A program made the position numbers and the translations under genes. Below, piece after piece: positions 5,207-45,633 of a stretch of DNA of 64,000 bases (within the stretch, counting starts at the first letter, position 1; each line of letters starts with the position of its first letter). The notes beneath the pieces are model-generated. The model worked only from the letters and a program-made list of their open reading frames with translations, ran no database searches and was not told the origin of the DNA. This DNA is from Thermodesulfobacteriota bacterium (GTDB taxonomy: Bacteria; Desulfobacterota; Desulfomonilia; UBA1062). The stretch spans positions 141 to 64,140 of the forward strand of contig DAITOA010000013.1 in assembly GCA_036834365.1 (NCBI GenBank), written 5' to 3'.

Positions 5207-6817
5207 ATGGGGAGCACTATGGGCAGATTCGATGCATTCACCTCCAAGGATTTTATAGAACAGGTCTCCATCCTCGGGTCTCTCGATCCTGCACGGGATC
5301 AAGATTCCATTCCCGATATCGTGGCGCTCCTGGGCAGGATACCGGAGCACGAGGCCATCATGCTGGTGATGAAGGACACCCTGAAGAAGCTGTTTTCGGG
5401 CAGCGAAGCCTCGACGGTGCGGTACCTCGCCGCCGGTGACCGGGAGATCCAGAAAATCTGCATCGAGGTGGCCGGCCGGGAAAGATTCGCTTCCGCAGCA
5501 GCGGCCCTGGAAGCCATCGAACGGCAGGCATCAGAAAAGAAGCACTACCGCATCGTCTTCGAGGTGATGAAGACGCTGGCCCAGATCCGACCGGAGGAAT
5601 CCATCGATCTGTTCAGAAAGCACGTGGATCACGAAGATTCCCTCATTGCATCTCTGTGCATCGAGACCCTCGGCGCACTGAACGACGCCCGGTCGTTCGA
5701 GCGCATGCACGGCATCATCATGGAAGCGGAGGATGACTCCCAAGGCGGCCTGTGCGACCTGCCGACAGCCAGCGCCATCAGGACCCTGGGCACATTCCAG
5801 GGCAGGGACGCCGTTGCCTTCTTCATCACCATGCTCCACCACAGGAACCCGGGGGTGCGCAGGGTGATCCACGAGGAGCTCTCCCGCAAGGGCATGGAGG
5901 CCGTGGACGCGCTCAGGGAAGTCTTCCGGGGAGACAGTTCCGACGCCAAGATATTCGCGGCAAACATCCTCGGTCTCATCGGGTCGAAGGAGGCGGCGGA
6001 CGTCCTCGTCCAGGCGCTGGATACGAACCGCAACGCCCATCCCAACATCCGGTATGCCATCTATGAGGCCCTCGGTTGCACCTCCGGCATGGCGGGCCTG
6101 GTCTGCCTGGCCGACGGGCTCGATGAGACGGACGGTATGGTCCTGCTGGCCGTGGTGACGGCCCTGGACATGCGGATGAACCAGTCGATCCTCGACCGGA
6201 TCTCCGAGACGATCAGGAAGGAAACCGGGCACGGCAGGAAGCTCGTGCAGGCGATCGTGGCATCCGGTGCCATGCATATCTTCGAGGGACTCCACCGTGG
6301 CGATGAGGCCATAGCGTCCATGCTGCTGGAAGAGATCAGGAATTCGGGCATCGGCGAGCACATCGCAGGGTACCGGACGATCCTGGAGGGGATGGACTCC
6401 GATCGCGCAAGGAACGACCTGCGGATTATCGATGGACTGCCCGCGAGAGAAGGTGAAAGGCGTATCCTGGCCGTGGACGACTCGAAGGCCATGCTCAACT
6501 TCTACAAGGGTGTGGCCGCTTCCCTGGGCATGGGCATCAGTACGGCCATGAACGGAAAGGAGGCCCTCGATGTCATTGCACTGGAGGAACGGTTCGACCT
6601 GATCATCACCGACATGAACATGCCGGTCATGGACGGGGTCGAGTTCACCGGTCATGTCAGGAGGGACCCGGCCCTTTCTGAGATCCCGATCATCATGATA
6701 ACCACCGAGTCCGAGCGTTCCCAGGAAGATCTGGCCCGCAAGGCCGGGGTGACCCACTTCATGCAGAAACCCTTCGACGCCGGGAAACTCATGGAGAGGA
6801 TCACCGGCTGCCTGTAG
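5207..6817 (+). CDS. HEAT/PBS-lyase-like repeat protein with a C-terminal response-regulator receiver (REC) domain
   Basis: Repeated helical units (DSLIASLCIETLGALND, PGVRRVIHEEL, AKIFAANILGLIGSKEAADVLVQAL, NIRYAIYEALG). The C-terminal ~120 aa is a REC domain (ILAVDDS...DLIITDMNMPVMDG...KPF). Start chosen at the internal ATG MGSTMGRF. Confidence 0.6.
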   Translation: MGSTMGRFDAFTSKDFIEQVSILGSLDPARDQDSIPDIVALLGRIPEHEAIMLVMKDTLKKLFSGSEASTVRYLAAGDREIQKICIEVAGRERFASAAAALEAIERQASEKKHYRIVFEVMKTLAQIRPEESIDLFRKHVDHEDSLIASLCIETLGALNDARSFERMHGIIMEAEDDSQGGLCDLPTASAIRTLGTFQGRDAVAFFITMLHHRNPGVRRVIHEELSRKGMEAVDALREVFRGDSSDAKIFAANILGLIGSKEAADVLVQALDTNRNAHPNIRYAIYEALGCTSGMAGLVCLADGLDETDGMVLLAVVTALDMRMNQSILDRISETIRKETGHGRKLVQAIVASGAMHIFEGLHRGDEAIASMLLEEIRNSGIGEHIAGYRTILEGMDSDRARNDLRIIDGLPAREGERRILAVDDSKAMLNFYKGVAASLGMGISTAMNGKEALDVIALEERFDLIITDMNMPVMDGVEFTGHVRRDPALSEIPIIMITTESERSQEDLARKAGVTHFMQKPFDAGKLMERITGCL

Positions 6818-7004
6818 GAGGGCGGGACCCCTCCGGAGATCCCGGCGGTCACCTCAGGGGCGTCATTGGAATTATTTTGGGCAAACATCAATCATTGCAT
6901 CATCCTATCCGGGAATGTGGTACATGTTTTGCTCAATATCGCCAAGAGGAGACGGACCGGCTCTCCAATAGTCAGGAATAGTACGCGAGGATACGAAGGA
7001 GACT

Positions 7005-7937
7005 ATGGGCACCAAACCAAAGAAGACAGGCAGGGCTTATATCTTCTATATCGCCTGTGTCGTGATGGCGCCGGTTCTGGTATGCGGGTGCAGTCGATTT
7101 CAGACCGGGTCAACCTTCAAGGAAGCGAATGAACTTTTCGGCCAGGGAGACTACGAGGCATCTCTGAAAACATATGAAGGAATCATTGAAAGGCATCCCT
7201 CGGCGGGAGACCGGGTTCTTTTCGAGATGGGGATCATTTACTCGTATCCCAGGAACGAGCAGAAAGACTACCGGAAATCTTTGGAGTGTTTTCAGGAACT
7301 CATAAAGAATTATCCCGAGAGCAGTTACAGATATGACAGTGAGAGGATGATCTTTCATATACAGAATGTCGTCCTGAAGGATCAGCGGATAGCCGAGCAG
7401 CAGACACTGATGGAGACTCTCCAACAGGAGCTTGAAAGCAAAGGGAATGAGATTGCTGCACTGCGGGAAGAAATTGAAGAGCTCCACCGGAAGGTCTCTT
7501 CACTGGAGCCGGGGCCGGCAGACAAGATCCTCATAGAGAAGAAAGAACGGAGATTGTCACTGATGGCAAAGGGCAGTGTCTTCAGGACCTACAAGATAGC
7601 CTTGGGGGGAAACCCGAATGGTCCGAAGGTAAGGCAGGGAGACAACAAAACCCCGGAAGGGACCTACATCATCGACTCAAGGAATATGGACAGCCGCTAC
7701 CACATCTCTCTTCACATTTCATATCCCAACGAGAGAGACAAACAACGGGCGAAAAAACTGGGCGTCCTGCCGGGCGGAGACATCATGATTCACGGCATCA
7801 AGAACGGATTTTCCATGGTCGGCGGACTGCATGCCGGGTCTGACTGGACGAAAGGGTGCATTGCCGTCACGGACGAAGAGATAGAAGAGATTGAAATGCT
7901 GGCCCCGAACGGTACGATTGTCGAGATAAGGCCATAG
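7005..7937 (+). CDS. Lipoprotein L,D-transpeptidase (YkuD/ErfK domain) with N-terminal TPR-like and coiled-coil regions
   Basis: AAGGAG RBS, signal peptide and lipobox (LVCGC). The YkuD catalytic domain has the conserved HG and active-site GCIA(V) motifs (YKIALGG...IMIHG...TKGCIAV). Lower GC than flanks. Confidence 0.75.
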   Translation: MGTKPKKTGRAYIFYIACVVMAPVLVCGCSRFQTGSTFKEANELFGQGDYEASLKTYEGIIERHPSAGDRVLFEMGIIYSYPRNEQKDYRKSLECFQELIKNYPESSYRYDSERMIFHIQNVVLKDQRIAEQQTLMETLQQELESKGNEIAALREEIEELHRKVSSLEPGPADKILIEKKERRLSLMAKGSVFRTYKIALGGNPNGPKVRQGDNKTPEGTYIIDSRNMDSRYHISLHISYPNERDKQRAKKLGVLPGGDIMIHGIKNGFSMVGGLHAGSDWTKGCIAVTDEEIEEIEMLAPNGTIVEIRP

Positions 7938-7957
7938 AGGACCCCATACGCGGAGCC

Positions 7958-9274
7958 ATGTGCAGAACGGTTGAACGCCCGATCCCATCCGGAAGGTTTC
8001 ATCTCATCGTCTTGTGCATACTCGTCTCATATCTCCAGGGATGTGCCGTAATGAACAGTATTCAGAAGATATCATCACCTTTCCCCGTCTATCCGGAAAA
8101 CCAGCTGGAACGGAACACGTTTTCGGTTGTGAAAGGAAGTGACGTCATCGGCCGGATGGCGATCATCAGGCTTGAAGAGGGCGATACCCTTCCGGACATC
8201 GCCCGGCACTTCAGCCTGGGAATCAATGCGGTCAATGCGGCCAATCCAGGGGTGGATGTGTGGGTACCTGATGCAGGAGGGCGTATCGTGCTGCCGCTGC
8301 GGTTCATTCTGCCGGATGCACCCAGAAAGGGTATCGTGATCAACCTGGCTGCCATGAGGCTCTTTCACTATAAAGGAGACAACGACGCACTCGTTGTGAC
8401 CACGTACCCGGTCGGCGTCGGCACCACGGAGCGACCCACCCCCACAGGCCAGATGCAGGTGGTGCGCAAGGTGACCCGGCCGACCTGGTATGTGCCCGCC
8501 TCCATTGCCGAGGATCATCGAAAAAAGGGAGATCCGCTTCCCGCTGCAGTTCTGCCGGGACCCCAGAATCCCCTGGGAGAATACGCGCTCTATCTGAGCA
8601 AGGCGAGTTATCTGATCCATGGCACCAATAAGCCGGCCAGCATCGGCCTGAATGCAACCAACGGCTGCCTGAGACTCTACCCGGAAGACGTGAAAAGGCT
8701 CTACGAGAATACGCCGGTTCACACACCCGTATGCATCGTCAACCAGCCATACCTCATAGGCCAGCGGAACGGGATCGTTTACATGGAGGTCCATGCGTCC
8801 CCGGAAGGCTCAGGGGCCGATGAGCTGGAAAAGATGTACAACAAGTTGAGAACCATTGAGAAGGTCTCCGGGCGTACGCTCGACTGGAAGAATATCGAGA
8901 GGACACTGTCGGAAGCCCGGGGGATTCCTGTGCCCATCCTGGAGATGGAACAGGGGAGATGGTTTGAGCCGACCATCGAAGTGATGCACCCGGGCACATT
9001 ATACGGGAGACCGGAAATTCCGGAATTGAACGCGGAGGCATGGTATGTCTGGGCTGCCGACCTGAACGATAGGACCGAAGCCTTGCGGATTGCCGCCATC
9101 ATTAGCCATCAGGGCCCGCCAATACCGGCACGTGTGATATCAAGGAGCAATGGCTACCGTGTCATCGCCGGCCCCTACAACGATATAAGCGAGGCCAAAG
9201 ATACGGTCAAACGACTGAAGATCGATCTGGAGATAGACGGTATCGTGATCGAACCCGCCGCGAAGCACCCCTGA
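7958..9274 (+). CDS. LysM + YkuD L,D-transpeptidase with C-terminal SPOR domain (lipoprotein signal)
   Basis: Lipobox YLQGC and a LysM-like segment (EEGDTLPDIARHFSLGINAVNAANPG). The YkuD domain carries LIHGTN...NGCLRL. The C-terminal ~75 aa is a SPOR-like fold (RVISRSNGYRVIAGPY...AKD). Confidence 0.75.
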   Translation: MCRTVERPIPSGRFHLIVLCILVSYLQGCAVMNSIQKISSPFPVYPENQLERNTFSVVKGSDVIGRMAIIRLEEGDTLPDIARHFSLGINAVNAANPGVDVWVPDAGGRIVLPLRFILPDAPRKGIVINLAAMRLFHYKGDNDALVVTTYPVGVGTTERPTPTGQMQVVRKVTRPTWYVPASIAEDHRKKGDPLPAAVLPGPQNPLGEYALYLSKASYLIHGTNKPASIGLNATNGCLRLYPEDVKRLYENTPVHTPVCIVNQPYLIGQRNGIVYMEVHASPEGSGADELEKMYNKLRTIEKVSGRTLDWKNIERTLSEARGIPVPILEMEQGRWFEPTIEVMHPGTLYGRPEIPELNAEAWYVWAADLNDRTEALRIAAIISHQGPPIPARVISRSNGYRVIAGPYNDISEAKDTVKRLKIDLEIDGIVIEPAAKHP

Positions 9275-9530
9275 TCAGGTTACAAAAAAGGTGCCGCTGT
9301 GTACGAACTTGTACATCTCTCAAAGGTCATGAATGGAAATTAACGTCCAATCGTGTAATATGTACGCGTCATACGTGTTGGCCTGCATATTGCTGTAAGA
9401 ATATCATGCAATTATTATATGAGAAGCCATGATAATGAAACCATTACCCCCGAAACAATCAATGACCCGGGGGGTAGACAGGCTCAGTTCGTTATCAAAC
9501 AATCCAAGCTGAATAGAACGGAGGTAAGGA

Positions 9531-9832
9531 TGAAAAAGATTCTATTGGGGATTTCCATGGTGATGGTACTCGCTCTCGGCATGTGGGGCTGCGCGACGAC
9601 CAGCGATATCGAGAGGGTCCAGGCGCAGGAAAAGGCGATCGATGCGAAAGCCGATCAGGCCATTCTGGATGCTCAGGCTGCCAAGGCGGCGGCTCAAGAG
9701 GCCCAGGCGAAGGCAGATGCCGCCACCGCCCGTGCCGAAGAAGCCGTGAGGAAGGCAGAGGAGAGGGAGCGGGCTGCGGAGGAGAAGCAGCAGCAGGCTG
9801 AAGCCCTTTTCCAGAAATCGATGAAGAAGTAA
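9531..9832 (+). CDS. Small Ala/Gln/Glu-rich coiled-coil (lipo)protein with C-terminal Lys-Lys; Braun-lipoprotein (Lpp)-like
   Basis: GGAGGT RBS 7 nt upstream. Signal peptide MKKILLGISMVMVLALGMWGC with a lipobox-like Cys, then ~75 aa of heptad-like Ala-rich helix, ending ...FQKSMKK. The longer ORF-track start (9419) lacks an RBS and signal logic. Confidence 0.6.
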
Positions 9833-9884
9833 GTCGGTATTTCAGATACACGCACCCATATCTTCATCTTCAAGGCTTCGACAG

Positions 9885-9917
9885 AGAAGTGGCCGGGTCT
9901 GAGACCCTGCCACTTCT
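9885..9917. terminator. Near-perfect 33-nt palindrome (nested hairpin) between convergent genes; likely bidirectional intrinsic terminator
   Basis: The sequence agaagtggccgggtctgagaccctgccacttct is self-complementary apart from a central loop and one mismatch. It is followed by a T-containing tract and lies between the 3' ends of the Lpp-like gene and the sulfatase gene. Confidence 0.45.
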
Positions 9918-9946
9918 TCCTTATAAACCCGACACGTACCCAGCCC

Positions 9947-11689
9947 TCAGTCCAGATCGAACCGATGGTTGAATGCCAGGAACCTCAGCCAGCTCCCCTG
10001 AACCTTGAGCTTGCCCGAGGCCAGGGCCGCCAGCGGGGTCGTCACCTTGGCCGCCATCTTCCGGTAGGTCAGGGCGTCCACGACGAGCGTGGCTACGGGC
10101 TCGGGCGTCCCGGGCAGCGGGTCCCCCTGAACCACCTCGGCGATACCGTTGCGCACTGTCACGATGAAGCGTCTCTGCTCGTCCGGGAACACGTAATACA
10201 CCGTCTCGTGCACGTCCATGGCCCTTTCCGGCACGAGCCTCGCAGCCATGATGGTGAAGATGGCATCCAGCGGGATATTGGCCACGACGTTCTCGTCCAG
10301 CCTTGCCTGGGCGGGCTTCTCGATGCCGTGCCGGATCTCGTAGGCAGATTCCAGGAGATAGCCCCGGCCGTTGAGGTTGTACAGGGTGGATGCCAGCCCC
10401 TCGTAGCCCCCGGCGAGCTTTTCGTCCAGTTTCCCCTTGAGGCTCCCGGTGGCCAGTCCGCTGTCCCTGAGCTTGGTGAGCAGGTGGATGGCCCAGCGGA
10501 AATCGCCGGTCGTCAGTGCTGCATCGGAGAGCTTCATGACCTGGTCGGCCCCGCCCATGAGCCTGACCTCCCTGCCCGCCGCATCACTGACCTTCATGGG
10601 GTAGAGCTTCTCCGGCCTCCCATCGAACCAGCCCAGGTTGTTGGTGTACACGGCCCGTGCGGACCAGTCCACCTGGCCGTAGAACTCGGTGGTGTAGGGG
10701 AGCCCGGCGAGGTGCGGCGGCAGCGTGACGGTCTCCGCTATGGCGTCCATGTCATACCCCATGTTCGCCAGCCTGACGGTCTCGTCCCTGACCCACTGGA
10801 TGGCGTCCCGGTAGTTGGTCAGGACCTCTGCAATATTCTGCGCACCGTGGACAGGCACGGTATGGCAGGGTACCAGGTGCTCGGGGTTCAGGGCACGCAT
10901 CTCGTCCAGGCTTTTGATCCATCCGTCGATGGGCCTCGGGCTGGCGCCGCGGATGGTGTAGAGGTTCGGGAAGGTCCAGTAGAAATTGTCGGCAGCGATC
11001 ACGGTCCGGTCCTGCGGTACCCAGATGACGAGCTGGTCGTGGGTCTCACCGGGCGCCTCGATGAGCCGGATCTCCAGCCCGCCGAAGACCAGGGTCTTTG
11101 TCCCGGAGAAGGTATTTGTGGGCAGGCGGATGCCCGCGCCCTCCTGGGCGGCCCTGATGTCGGTGCGCCTGCCGATGCCGTTACAGGGCAGGTCATCCAG
11201 GGAGACGTGATCCCCGAACTGACGCCTGCCGCGGATGGTCTCGATGGGCAGGAAGAGCTGGTACTGCTTGTAGAAATGGTCCGTAAAGGTGTCCGTGGCC
11301 CAGATCTGCGGCCTGTCCTCCATCCAGAGGGACGCACCCCCGATGTGGTCTATGTGACTGTGGGTGTAGATGACGGCTTTGACCGGTCCTGCCGGGACGT
11401 TCGCGAGGAGGTCCCGCTTAGCCGCCTCTCCCCTCTTCGGGCTCATGAGGGGGTCCACGATGACGGAGCCCTCGGGGGTATGGATGAGGATCTCGTTGGC
11501 CAGGTCATACCCGACGGCGGCCCACACGTGCTCGGAGATCCGCTCGATGCGTGGCTCTCCGATGAGTTCGCACTGCCTCCTGAGGAGGTCAGGACCTGGC
11601 AGGGCGTCCCTGATCTGCCGGGCCCCGGGTGAACAGCCGATACTCAGTGCAAGGGAAAGGATCAGGACGGTCAGGGAATGCCTTTTCAT
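9947..11689 (-). CDS. Alkyl/aryl-sulfatase of the metallo-beta-lactamase fold (SdsA1/BDS1-like), lipoprotein signal
   Basis: Signal peptide plus Cys (SIGCSP). MBL motif HSHIDHIGG, a long dimerisation region and a C-terminal SCP2-like domain. 580 aa. Confidence 0.75.
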   Translation of the reverse strand: MKRHSLTVLILSLALSIGCSPGARQIRDALPGPDLLRRQCELIGEPRIERISEHVWAAVGYDLANEILIHTPEGSVIVDPLMSPKRGEAAKRDLLANVPAGPVKAVIYTHSHIDHIGGASLWMEDRPQIWATDTFTDHFYKQYQLFLPIETIRGRRQFGDHVSLDDLPCNGIGRRTDIRAAQEGAGIRLPTNTFSGTKTLVFGGLEIRLIEAPGETHDQLVIWVPQDRTVIAADNFYWTFPNLYTIRGASPRPIDGWIKSLDEMRALNPEHLVPCHTVPVHGAQNIAEVLTNYRDAIQWVRDETVRLANMGYDMDAIAETVTLPPHLAGLPYTTEFYGQVDWSARAVYTNNLGWFDGRPEKLYPMKVSDAAGREVRLMGGADQVMKLSDAALTTGDFRWAIHLLTKLRDSGLATGSLKGKLDEKLAGGYEGLASTLYNLNGRGYLLESAYEIRHGIEKPAQARLDENVVANIPLDAIFTIMAARLVPERAMDVHETVYYVFPDEQRRFIVTVRNGIAEVVQGDPLPGTPEPVATLVVDALTYRKMAAKVTTPLAALASGKLKVQGSWLRFLAFNHRFDLD

Positions 11690-43572: not shown

Positions 43573-43909
43573 TCTTCTACCTCCTGTTTCAGGGAACTCG
43601 CGGGGTGTGCTTGGCATGCGGCCCTGAGGGTAATGAACAATATGTTACGTTAGACCTATCGGCCGGGGGAAGGCAAGAGTAAGGATTACATTTTTGATTT
43701 TGAGGGGATAGCGGTATGGTAATCGTGGGCGGGTGACCTCGAACCCTCATACAGGGGATGGGTCCCTGGATGTTTCATCCGGTAATCTCTCCGTATCTGA
43801 TCTTCAAGAGAGCTTGAGTCACCGGAGTCGTCTTCCATGCGTTCCGTTAAGAGGTTACGATCGATTCATCGTTGCAATTTACGGCAATCAGTTTTACAAT
43901 GATATTATA

Positions 43910-44734
43910 ATGTTATATAATGCATATCAATTTGTTATCCTCCTCATTATAGAAACATTTTTCTTAACCGTGCCCGGCCTGGCATTCGATGATAACGCAG
44001 CGCAACCTCGGTCCCACGATATCGTGAAAACAACGGGCACCATATTGCCGAGAGCGGAACGACCCGGTCTTGCCGTATTGAGGTTCACAAACACCACGCC
44101 CAAGGAACGGGCGATTAATTTCCAGCCCTGGGAATACGGTATTGCCGCCCTGCTCATTACCGACCTGGAAGAAACCGCCATGTTCAACATCGTAGACCGG
44201 GAGAGGATCAATGACATCCTTAAGGAGATCAGGTTACAGAAATCCGGTCTTGTAGATCCGAACTCCGCTGTGGCCATCGGGAAATTGGTCGCTGCAAAAT
44301 ATATTCTCACAGGGACCTTCATGGAGATGAAAGGTCAACTGAAAATTTCCGGACAGGTATATTCCGTGGAGAAAGGCATCCAGCTGGGAGCAACTTCAGT
44401 CACCGGGAAAACAGAGAATTTTTTCCTTTTGGAGAAGGACCTCTTCACAAAAGTCACCCACATCATGGGGGTCGTGCTGGATGACGAAAAACAAAACAAG
44501 ATACTGAACACCTTTGAGACGAAATCCGTATACGCATCACTGAAAAACTATGCCGGGGAAATTGCGTTGATGATGGCAGCCGAATTGAAGAAGGTGGGAA
44601 AGGCGGAGGAGTCGGACCGCCTTGAAAAGGATGCCAAACTGAAGTTCGAAGAGGCCTTGGAATACGATCCGGACTATGAACGGGCAAAGAGAAATCTCGT
44701 CAAGCTCGTGATGGCCATCCCCATGACGTTATGA
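43910..44734 (+). CDS. Periplasmic CsgG-family (CsgG/LpoB-like alpha/beta domain) protein
   Basis: Signal peptide without a lipobox. Core AVLRF.N.T...GIAALLITDLEE...FNIVDRERINDILKEIRLQKSGLVD...AIGKLVAAKYILTGT resembles Pfam CsgG-like domain proteins. Lower GC. Confidence 0.5.
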   Translation: MLYNAYQFVILLIIETFFLTVPGLAFDDNAAQPRSHDIVKTTGTILPRAERPGLAVLRFTNTTPKERAINFQPWEYGIAALLITDLEETAMFNIVDRERINDILKEIRLQKSGLVDPNSAVAIGKLVAAKYILTGTFMEMKGQLKISGQVYSVEKGIQLGATSVTGKTENFFLLEKDLFTKVTHIMGVVLDDEKQNKILNTFETKSVYASLKNYAGEIALMMAAELKKVGKAEESDRLEKDAKLKFEEALEYDPDYERAKRNLVKLVMAIPMTL

Positions 44735-44796
44735 TGCAGCACGAGAGCTGAAGCACTGATGGATGAGATGCAATAAGCACGACCAGGAGTTATGAA

Positions 44797-45633
44797 ATGA
44801 AAAAAACATACGGCATTATGTTTTTCCTTGTTATCTCCATGATTTTCCCCCTCGAGAAGGCGGAATCGGGAACGTTCTTCGTAGGGACAAAGTTCTGGTA
44901 TGCCAGCTGGGACTCAGGGATCCTGGACTGGATGGGCAAGGAAATTTCCGCCCAGATGAATGCGAACGGCTGGGATGTCACGTCCGATGCGGAAAACGGG
45001 TCCGGTTACCTGGCCGGGCCTCTCCTCGGGTATCAGAGCACGGATGGACTGTGGTCCGTGAGCCTTGCCCCCATGGTGCTCAGCGACTTCTCGCAGGAGT
45101 TGGATCTTATGGTCGACCAGATAGGATTCACCTTTGATACCAAGGTGGATGTAACTCGCTACGATTATGATCTGGCCTTTGCCTATTCCCTCTCTCCCTT
45201 GAGAAGATGGAGCCCTTTCTTCGAATACTGCAGGGTATTCGCGGGATACAAGTATCAGGTCGTCAACATGGACATCATCGTCCGATCGAGTGGAGGCATC
45301 CCGACGGATGCACAGAAGACAGAGAACGACTACACGGTCAATATGCCGACAATCGGTCTTGGTGTGACCTATCCCGTGACTCATAAGATTGCCCTGGGGC
45401 TGCAGGGGGGATTAGGACTTGCCTTCTTCGACACCCCTGCGGATACGGACAGCTCAACCACCCTGAATGCCGAAGCAAGCCTGAGCCTTGTGCCGATGGA
45501 TAAGATGATAATCCAGCTGGGGTACAGGTATCAGGAATGGAAATATAACCCTTCAGATCCTGAATATCCTGTGGATTCTTCATCCAAGGATGTCACCGCC
45601 GGACCGATACTGACAGCTGTCTATACCTTTTAG
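44797..45633 (+). CDS. Outer-membrane beta-barrel protein (OMP_b-brl-like, ~12 strands) ending in aromatic residue
   Basis: AGGAG RBS and signal peptide. Alternating hydrophobic/aromatic beta-strand pattern, Gly/Tyr-rich, with C-terminal ...AVYTF as an OMP targeting signature. Confidence 0.55.
   Translation: MKKTYGIMFFLVISMIFPLEKAESGTFFVGTKFWYASWDSGILDWMGKEISAQMNANGWDVTSDAENGSGYLAGPLLGYQSTDGLWSVSLAPMVLSDFSQELDLMVDQIGFTFDTKVDVTRYDYDLAFAYSLSPLRRWSPFFEYCRVFAGYKYQVVNMDIIVRSSGGIPTDAQKTENDYTVNMPTIGLGVTYPVTHKIALGLQGGLGLAFFDTPADTDSSTTLNAEASLSLVPMDKMIIQLGYRYQEWKYNPSDPEYPVDSSSKDVTAGPILTAVYTF

Follow-up and report, generated by a model that had tools for sequence, protein, structure and literature searches.

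A block of three neighboring genes, here called geneA, geneB and geneC, probably encodes a system for reversible tethering of the outer membrane (OM) to peptidoglycan (PG) in a Thermodesulfobacteriota bacterium (Desulfomonilia; UBA1062), comprising a tether, an enzyme that would attach it and a probable detaching enzyme. The block lies in contig DAITOA010000013.1 of assembly GCA_036834365.1, of which we analyzed positions 141 to 64,140, a stretch of 64,000 nucleotides (nt) that is hereafter the window; all coordinates count from its first letter. GeneC belongs to the Lpp/OprI family and ends in an invariant lysine, geneB carries the motif of YkuD-type L,D-transpeptidases (LDTs) and geneA that of YkuD-type hydrolases, the three genes stay together in relatives, and the lengths of geneA and geneC co-vary. 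An earlier annotation, made from the letters without database searches (the sequence-only reading), had recognized three genes on one strand and placed the start of the small one at 9531. The open reading frames (ORFs) of the two large genes stand as it gave them, but geneC starts at 9530, and the frame from 9531 gives stops. The genes and their key residues, numbered in amino acids (aa), are:

7005-7937, + strand: geneA, ORF of 310 aa, hydrolase-type YkuD lipoprotein
7089-7091, + strand: codon of the geneA lipoprotein signal Cys29
7329-7505, + strand: geneA helical spacer, aa 109-167 (59 residues), in an AlphaFold model with a predicted local distance difference test score (pLDDT) of ~82-93
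7857-7859, + strand: codon of the geneA catalytic Cys285, motif T282-K-G-C285-I-A287 (SxGChA)
7958-9274, + strand: geneB, ORF of 438 aa, transpeptidase-type YkuD plus SPOR
8042-8044, + strand: codon of the geneB lipoprotein-like signal Cys29
8666-8668, + strand: codon of the geneB catalytic Cys237, motif T-N-G-C-L-R (SxGChR, the transpeptidase form)
9530-9832, + strand: geneC, ORF of 100 aa ending ...KSMKK, Lpp/OprI-family alanine-zipper lipoprotein
9590-9592, + strand: codon of the geneC lipobox Cys21, preceded by a signal peptide
9827-9829, + strand: codon of the geneC C-terminal Lys100, which closes an 80-residue mature coiled-coil protein

A gap of 20 nt separates geneA from geneB. Fifteen of the organism's own contigs carry an identical geneC, and the arrangement of the block is the same in 10 of the 10 examined.

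The small gene encodes an Lpp/OprI-family lipoprotein

GeneC matches the Pfam Alanine_zipper model PF11839 with 43.7 bits (cut-off 23.1) over model positions 1-69 of 69, and the NCBIfam Lpp/OprI model NF040598 with 63 bits (cut-off 43), aa 6-100 aligning with positions 3-90 of 90. The identical protein in NCBI is named 'Lpp/OprI family alanine-zipper lipoprotein [Deltaproteobacteria bacterium]', and E. coli Lpp is 30% identical to it over 66 aa. The sequence-only reading had called the small protein Braun-lipoprotein-like, and both above-threshold matches agree with this, but the Pfam LPP model that it suggested, PF04728, gives no match at E<0.1, and the enterobacterial Lpp model NF011925 scores 19.5 bits against a cut-off of 108.

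Its lipoprotein nature, proposed in the same reading, is upheld by the signal peptide and by the conserved G-C of the lipobox. Two sets of homologues were compared, one metagenomic (120 sequences) and one at species level (74 sequences). The lipobox G-C-A-T is kept in 116/120 and 74/74 of them, respectively, and the strict PROSITE lipobox pattern is satisfied by 70/120 and 68/74. The terminal lysine, on which the proposed likeness to Lpp had been built, is present in 120/120 and 74/74 homologues (194/194 together), within the motif SM[KRM]K. A longer geneC start at 9419 (137 aa) was rejected, the homologues starting at MKK. An aberrant orthologue was seen in a metagenome-assembled genome (MAG) labelled 'delta proteobacterium' (L020:5394-5667): it ends ...KAQTSTPFSGNQ, not ...SMKK, lacks the terminal lysine, and is matched in separate pieces at its N-terminus and in its coil. 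A frameshift or an error of assembly is the probable cause; otherwise this would be a pseudogene that lost the acceptor lysine.

The mature geneC proteins are 73, 80, 87, 94, 101 or 108 residues long, which are exact heptad steps, except in two species, where the length is 90. The heptad-stepped lengths and the full-length alanine-zipper match bear only indirectly on whether geneC forms the continuous, trimeric heptad coiled coil expected of the family.

GeneB is a transpeptidase-type YkuD enzyme with a SPOR domain

The second protein had been described as an LDT with LysM and SPOR domains. The Pfam YkuD domain is found at aa 124-260 (82 bits, cut-off 23.4) and the SPOR domain (PF05036) at aa 360-431, encoded at 9035-9250 (40.3-43.8 bits, cut-off 21), but the LysM-like N-domain (aa ~59-115) reaches only 13.4 bits with Pfam LysM, below the cut-off of 20.9; this region aligns with the LysM-like N-domain of E. 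coli LdtE. A C-terminal subdomain extends to about aa 329. Among structures, PDB 9tyw aligns with aa 59-329 of geneB through residues 30-303 of a 322-aa chain (E=1.6e-64). E. coli LdtE is 35% identical to geneB, and the alignment with LdtE-type enzymes runs end to end. Of the three NCBIfam LDT models (NF047955, NF007563 and NF007612), the LdtE-like one scores best, with 174 bits, and the other two give 171 and 164 bits; the equivalog cut-offs are 480-583, and geneB is well short of equivalog level for all three. The LdtA-E lineage with which geneB aligns includes the enzymes that anchor OprI and Lpp, and anchoring and cross-linking activities of LDTs are not separable by sequence or phylogeny (PMC10434034).

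An N-terminal hydrophobic stretch ending in L-x-G-C is conserved, as judged by eye, in nearly all of the geneB proteins of 69 species, and this conservation speaks for 7958 as the start of geneB and for anchoring as a lipoprotein. The 407-aa version of geneB called by several pipelines was rejected, for it drops 7958-8050 and cuts off the conserved signal and lipobox. The lipobox-like signal that the earlier annotation saw in the first protein is confirmed, and the second and third proteins have one too.

GeneA is a hydrolase-type YkuD lipoprotein related to DpaA

The first protein had also been taken for an LDT, and this does not hold: it has the SxGChA motif, together with residues and loops of the DpaA type. 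Its Pfam YkuD domain (58 bits, cut-off 23.4) spans aa 174-308, and its N-terminal half contains a TPR region (aa 36-107, Pfam TPR_6); the BamD/YfiO and YbgF/CpoB TPR models match this half weakly. The 290-aa geneA called by NCBI was rejected, for it drops 7005-7064 and cuts off the conserved N-terminal signal and lipobox; conservation across species supports the start at 7005. The SxGChA motif is invariant in 30 geneA homologues; alanine rather than arginine two residues after the cysteine is the published criterion for hydrolases (PMC10434034, PMC10653827), and in geneA the alanine occupies the position of DpaA A145, where transpeptidases have arginine.

LdtF/DpaA/YafK (NF040599) is the best NCBIfam model of geneA, and among YkuD structures of the PDB the crystal structure of DpaA, 8ikr, matches best. 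E. coli DpaA is 32% identical to geneA over 142 residues. Equivalents of DpaA K83, Q86, R108, Y109, M133, H135, C143 and A145 are present in geneA, the first six as K208, Q211, R231, Y232, M261 and H263; features of this kind serve to tell hydrolases from transpeptidases in the DpaA structure paper (PMC10653827) and in the P. aeruginosa LDT paper (PMC10434034). In DpaA, K83 and Y109 are essential, a Y131 mutant retains 4% activity, and M133 replaces the tryptophan of carboxypeptidases (PMC10653827); correspondingly, geneA Met261 occupies the position of the tryptophan in D-Ala-specific L,D-carboxypeptidases. In a joint alignment, geneA and DpaA share the long GPKxRQGD (L1) loop, and the lid-loop insertion of geneB and LdtE is absent from both. 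When the AlphaFold model of geneA was compared with the PDB by Foldseek, the YkuD fold was confirmed, with YkuD and LdtMt2 structures at probability 1.0; as a discriminator between hydrolases and transpeptidases, the fold search did not separate the two classes.

A 179-aa single-domain protein annotated as 'L,D-transpeptidase family protein' was seen on the Rhizobium brockwellii plasmid pRltCC275eE (L099:2432-2971). It is 51% identical to the geneA catalytic domain and has the same 14-residue insertion and GCIA motif, which suggests that there may be an uncharacterized hydrolase-type YkuD subfamily nearer to geneA than DpaA is.

The trio is linked across Desulfobacterota and Nitrospirota

Relatives were gathered by a scan with a geneA alignment, one genome per species, which gave 257 relatives; the best 80 were kept, and 73 of the kept loci had enough sequence for the trio arrangement to be read. 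The 80 belong to Geobacteraceae, Desulfuromonadales, Syntrophales, Desulfobacterales and other Desulfobacterota, and also to the Thermodesulfovibrionia and Nitrospiraceae of the Nitrospirota; the cultured carriers identified are Geobacter sp. OR-1 and Geomobilimonas luticola. The sequence-only reading had proposed a search for synteny of an LDT with a small lipoprotein ending in lysine, and geneA, geneB and geneC are indeed neighbors on one strand in 73 of the 73 informative species loci. The order is A-B-C, as in the window, in 8 loci and B-C-A in 65. The genes that flank the trio in the window recur at none of the relatives' loci. In evolution the trio holds together as a unit, and it has moved between contexts and between Desulfobacterota and Nitrospirota.

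In one relative whose geneC is 80% identical (L011:5398-13651), the trio stands directly beside rodA-mrdA(PBP2)-mreD-mreC-mreB, an elongasome neighborhood related to cell wall synthesis that is absent from the window. Parts of the trio were also found on contigs of 2.5-3 kb (L031, L063 and L083) in MAGs labelled as a Thermoplasmata archaeon, Peptostreptococcales and Phycisphaerae; erroneous binning most likely accounts for these labels, which would then not name the true hosts.

The geneA spacer and geneC co-vary in length

The geneA spacer was counted as the residues between two invariant alignment anchors, F96 and E178 in the window protein, which span the long helix; this count replaced an earlier measurement by regular expression that lost half the loci. 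The spacer takes the values 82, 89, 96 and 110, mostly heptad steps, with a few off-step values. It correlates with the mature geneC length with a Spearman coefficient of 0.82 (n=77), and 36 of the 77 species fall exactly on one line, (82,80), (89,87), (96,94) and (110,108), a number reached in 0 of 10,000 permutations. Independent contrasts on a neighbor-joining tree of geneB retain the association (r=0.61, 68 contrasts, p=3e-8), and changes on this tree number at least 13 in the spacer and at least 19 in the Lpp length.

The co-variation would fit a geneA protein that is anchored in the membrane which also holds the tether, with a helix that puts the active site at the tether C-terminus. We advance more tentatively the possible extension that the three genes form a portable cassette acting as a 'periplasmic ruler', in which a heptad-set tether length (73-108) would fix the distance from OM to PG, a matching, heptad-stepped helix of OM-anchored geneA would put the active site exactly at the tether C-terminus, perhaps by packing alongside the Lpp coiled coil, and the two lengths would co-evolve as the cassette spread through Desulfobacterota and Nitrospirota. 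If this were so, covalent tethering of the Lpp type would not be a gammaproteobacterial invention.

Proposed function and alternative explanations

In the mechanism that we infer, geneC would be an abundant OM lipoprotein, lipid-anchored through its N-terminal cysteine, with the 80-residue coil spanning the periplasm; its own promoter-like site and a downstream hairpin are visible in the sequence. GeneB, an enzyme of the LdtA-E/LdtPae2 type, would form an acyl-enzyme with the PG tetrapeptide and pass the tripeptide to the epsilon-amine of the geneC C-terminal lysine, and its SPOR domain would bias it toward denuded, septal glycan. In the geneA lipoprotein, the TPR repeats and the long helix would hold the DpaA-type YkuD domain at the plane of the PG, where it would cleave the bond between meso-diaminopimelic acid and lysine and so free the tether. 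The tethering logic of the sequence-only reading survives insofar as a YkuD enzyme adjoins a lipoprotein with a C-terminal lysine, its likely substrate; it had supposed two LDTs, and only geneB is transpeptidase-type. Because geneA is hydrolase-type, the module would encode attachment and probable detachment. What the analysis shows is family membership, the motifs, the invariant lysine, conserved synteny and the length co-variation; the covalent bond, this division of labor between geneA and geneB, and the localization of the proteins are inferred.

Several observations weigh against this proposal. The LDT gene that adjoins lpp in E. coli encodes the cross-linking enzyme LdtE, the K-12 genes lpp (b1677) and ldtE (b1678) being adjacent and convergent (L097:4422-5726), so adjacency of an LDT gene and lpp is by itself no proof of anchoring. 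The match of geneA to the DpaA model, at 44.4 bits, is far below the equivalog cut-off of 365; DpaA K130 and Y131 are replaced by G258 and D259, and there is a 14-residue insertion between the catalytic His and Cys. The Foldseek search placed generic transpeptidases first and DpaA 8ikr outside the top 50, and the catalytic loops of the AlphaFold model have low pLDDT. GeneC of the window has tryptophan at lipobox position -2, outside the PROSITE pattern, and some sister pairs of species altered only one of the two lengths, so that the coupling is imperfect.

What else might the two enzymes do? GeneB might be mainly a septal 3-3 cross-linker like E. coli LdtE, with its adjacency to Lpp being historical and the tether either attached by an LDT encoded elsewhere or non-covalent. 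We regard this as unlikely. The best NCBIfam model is indeed LdtE, but the other two LDT models score nearly as high; E. coli ldtE makes cross-links in spite of its place beside lpp, and LDT phylogeny does not reveal function, but the trio has stayed intact through rearrangement and cross-phylum spread in every informative locus. The SPOR domain, which suggests targeting to septal PG, would suit a cross-linker, whereas the invariant terminal lysine of geneC implies selection for acceptor function and suits the tethering that we propose.

It is similarly doubtful that geneA, instead of being an Lpp-releasing amidase, is a stem-trimming L,D-carboxypeptidase like Csd6, Pgp2 or Bd1075, or is itself the anchoring enzyme. 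DpaA and the L,D-carboxypeptidases belong to the same fold class and share the L1 lysine, but geneA has methionine (Met261) where the D-Ala-specific carboxypeptidases have tryptophan, and Tyr232 as in DpaA. The distance from DpaA is considerable, with an identity of only 32%, no counterpart of Y131 and the extra loop, and the Rhizobium single-domain homologue has no such Lpp neighbor at its locus; against an anchoring role stands the alanine, in place of the transpeptidase arginine, two residues past the catalytic cysteine. The length co-variation would fit any enzyme acting at the Lpp C-terminus, but together with the strict linkage to geneC it would not be expected of a general trimmer of stem peptides.

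Composition and origin of the block

The block has a GC content of 0.535, against 0.62-0.63 in its flanks, so the lower GC noted in the sequence-only reading is real, and the dip extends to synonymous sites: GC at third codon positions (GC3) is 0.63, 0.68 and 0.71 in geneA, geneB and geneC, against about 0.8 in most genes of the window. The composition recurs elsewhere. Trio GC is below that of the host flanks in 58 of 67 species, by 4.2 points on average, and lies near 0.45-0.50 in most species, with host flanks ranging from 0.41 to 0.62. Because of this recurrence, the dip characterizes the module itself and does not mark a dated event. Identity between Geobacterales and Nitrospirota (0.74-0.77) equals or exceeds that within Geobacterales (0.73-0.75), and the low trio GC, this cross-phylum identity and the varied contexts of the trio together argue for transfer between lineages over evolutionary time.

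The horizontally acquired cassette of the earlier annotation can be kept in this sense of old, repeated transfer, but the locus bears no marks of recent insertion. A recently acquired island in this particular genome would account for the compositional contrast with the flanks, for the different contexts in which the nearest relatives hold the trio, and for the Geobacterales-Nitrospirota identity being as high as that within Geobacterales, but we think it improbable. Direct repeats flanking the block are only short and at chance level; the nearest tRNA genes are some 6.6 kb away, and no mobile-element genes are among the annotated neighboring genes; a plasmid search gave neither a full-length geneA nor any geneC; the 10 contigs of the organism that were examined all have the same arrangement; and trio GC is commonly below that of the host. 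Another pair of genes in the window (43733-45633) is also as GC-poor as the trio (GC 0.48 and 0.52, GC3 0.58 and 0.65); the first matches CsgG and LpoB lipoprotein domains and the second has no Pfam match, and as an envelope lipoprotein pair it likewise argues against a recent island.

Relation to known tethering systems

The component families of the trio are known, and what is new in this version of the Lpp/OprI-LDT-DpaA system is its architecture and its taxonomic range; it is not a new kind of system. In E. coli, attachment of Lpp by LdtA/B/C and its detachment by DpaA (LdtF/YafK) are established (PMC8263019, PMC10653827). The same three-part logic of tether, attachment and detachment is seen there, with identities of 30% (Lpp), 35% (LdtE) and 32% (DpaA) to geneC, geneB and geneA, but the E. 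coli genes are dispersed whereas the trio is clustered, and E. coli DpaA is a compact, single-domain, soluble protein, whereas the YkuD domain of geneA is preceded by a lipobox, TPR repeats and a helix of 59 residues. In P. aeruginosa, OprI is anchored by LdtPae2, and LdtPae3 (YafK-like) is the proposed release enzyme (PMC10434034). OprI and geneC share the family (PF11839/NF040598), the lipobox, the alanine-zipper coil and the C-terminal lysine, the anchoring enzyme and geneB both have SxGChR, the former being of the LdtA-E lineage to which geneB probably belongs too, and the third YkuD protein and geneA both have SxGChA. Unlike the P. aeruginosa genes, the trio forms one conserved cluster; its tethers are 73-108 residues long when mature and end in SM(K/R)K, whereas OprI ends in SRK; geneB has a lipobox and a C-terminal SPOR domain, and geneA combines a lipoprotein signal with TPR repeats and a long helix. 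There is also a likeness to OM-anchored regulators of PG enzymes (LpoA/LpoB, CpoB/YbgF and BamD-type TPR lipoproteins): like the Lpo proteins, geneA would have to reach from the OM to the PG, but in geneA the spanning module continues directly into a catalytic YkuD domain, and this module follows the tether in length.

A Geobacter Lpp of at least 99 residues has been published, with covalent tethering assumed in the available parts of the two papers (PMC8824477, PMC13442872); in the more recent of these, from 2026, the Lpp of G. sulfurreducens is regarded as tethering covalently, and its available passages present no muropeptide evidence (PMC13442872). The Geobacteraceae loci L046-L094 hold geneC orthologues of 93-121 aa, and the long Geobacter Lpp very probably belongs to the same orthologous group as geneC. 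The available passages of the two papers do not mention flanking LDT or DpaA-like genes, a heptad series of lengths, presence in Nitrospirota or muropeptide evidence (PMC8824477, PMC13442872). The claim of the sequence-only reading that such a tether had not been characterized in deltaproteobacteria is true biochemically, but the long Geobacter Lpp is in print, as far as these passages go (PMC8824477, PMC13442872), and NCBI already names the protein Lpp/OprI. A full-text literature search, in which not every journal was covered, did not find the conserved trio, a SPOR-fused transpeptidase of this kind, a TPR-helix-fused hydrolase or the length co-variation.

Why might this lineage have been overlooked? 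Two widely cited surveys restricted Lpp to a subclade of Gammaproteobacteria and reported DpaA-like enzymes from many bacteria 'lacking Lpp'. PF04728 was the only model with which either survey searched, and they missed this Lpp lineage because that model does not match the geneC family. With the trio linked in at least 73 species of the Desulfobacterota and Nitrospirota, among 257 relatives detected, the known range of covalent OM-PG tethering would have to be redrawn, and many 'orphan' DpaA-like genes would gain a substrate. The heptad series of tether lengths with its co-varying spacer would offer a ready-made test of how the width of the periplasm is set, a question so far addressed mainly with engineered E. 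coli Lpp, and the Geobacter carriers are cultured bacteria in which envelope geometry matters for extracellular electron transfer.

Regulatory features and flanking genes

The noncoding features of the block are:

6818-7004, + strand: 187-nt region 5' of geneA (GC 0.53); AGGAG at 6996-7000 is the ribosome-binding site
9275-9529, + strand: intergenic region between geneB and geneC, 255 nt, GC 0.42, with a GGAGG ribosome-binding site at 9520-9524
9378-9407, + strand: promoter-like site 5' of geneC, TTGGCC-18-TATCAT
9885-9917, no strand assigned: GC-rich hairpin between convergent geneC and an alkyl-sulfatase-like gene

The AT-rich region of about 250 nt in the sequence-only reading corresponds to the intergenic region of 255 nt. 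Of the palindromes assigned to it, TGTAC-N6-GTACA (TGTACGAACTTGTACA) occurs once, at 9300-9315, with 0 occurrences expected by chance, but TACGCGTA is absent, the actual sequence at 9363-9370 being TACGCGTC. In a consensus scan, promoter-like sites were no commoner than in shuffled sequence, and none was found in 6818-7004. Two relatives, L023 and L012, partly conserve the 9300-9315 palindrome and the promoter-like stretch. An imperfect inverted repeat, AATATGTACGC / GCCTGCATATT (9357-9391), overlaps the geneC promoter-like site, and TTGGCCTGCATATTGCT...GAATATCA may be a regulatory site because it is conserved in L023 and partly in L012.

The strong palindrome at the end of the block exists as a hairpin, its 16-nt arms showing 94% complementarity, and a 114-nt fold around it has a free energy of -33.5 kcal/mol (z = -3.9). 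Its designation as a strong terminator is less secure, for the hairpin is without a T-run and a consensus terminator scan gave no call; it is a probable bidirectional terminator. An Rfam search of 9250-9960 by E-value gave chance miRNA matches only, and no known leader RNA or riboswitch. A reading of the locus as a defense system was rejected, PADLOC giving no meaningful match. Rfam at the gathering threshold found two tRNAs only in the whole window, and the surrounding features are:

86-257, - strand: two tRNA genes at the left window edge, about 6.6 kb from the block and unrelated to it
5219-6817: upstream neighbor of the block, a gene for HEAT repeats with a C-terminal response-regulator receiver domain
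9947-11689, - strand: alkyl-sulfatase-like gene, convergent with geneC

The HEAT-repeat and receiver fusion shows no linkage to the trio in other genomes and is unusual in its architecture.

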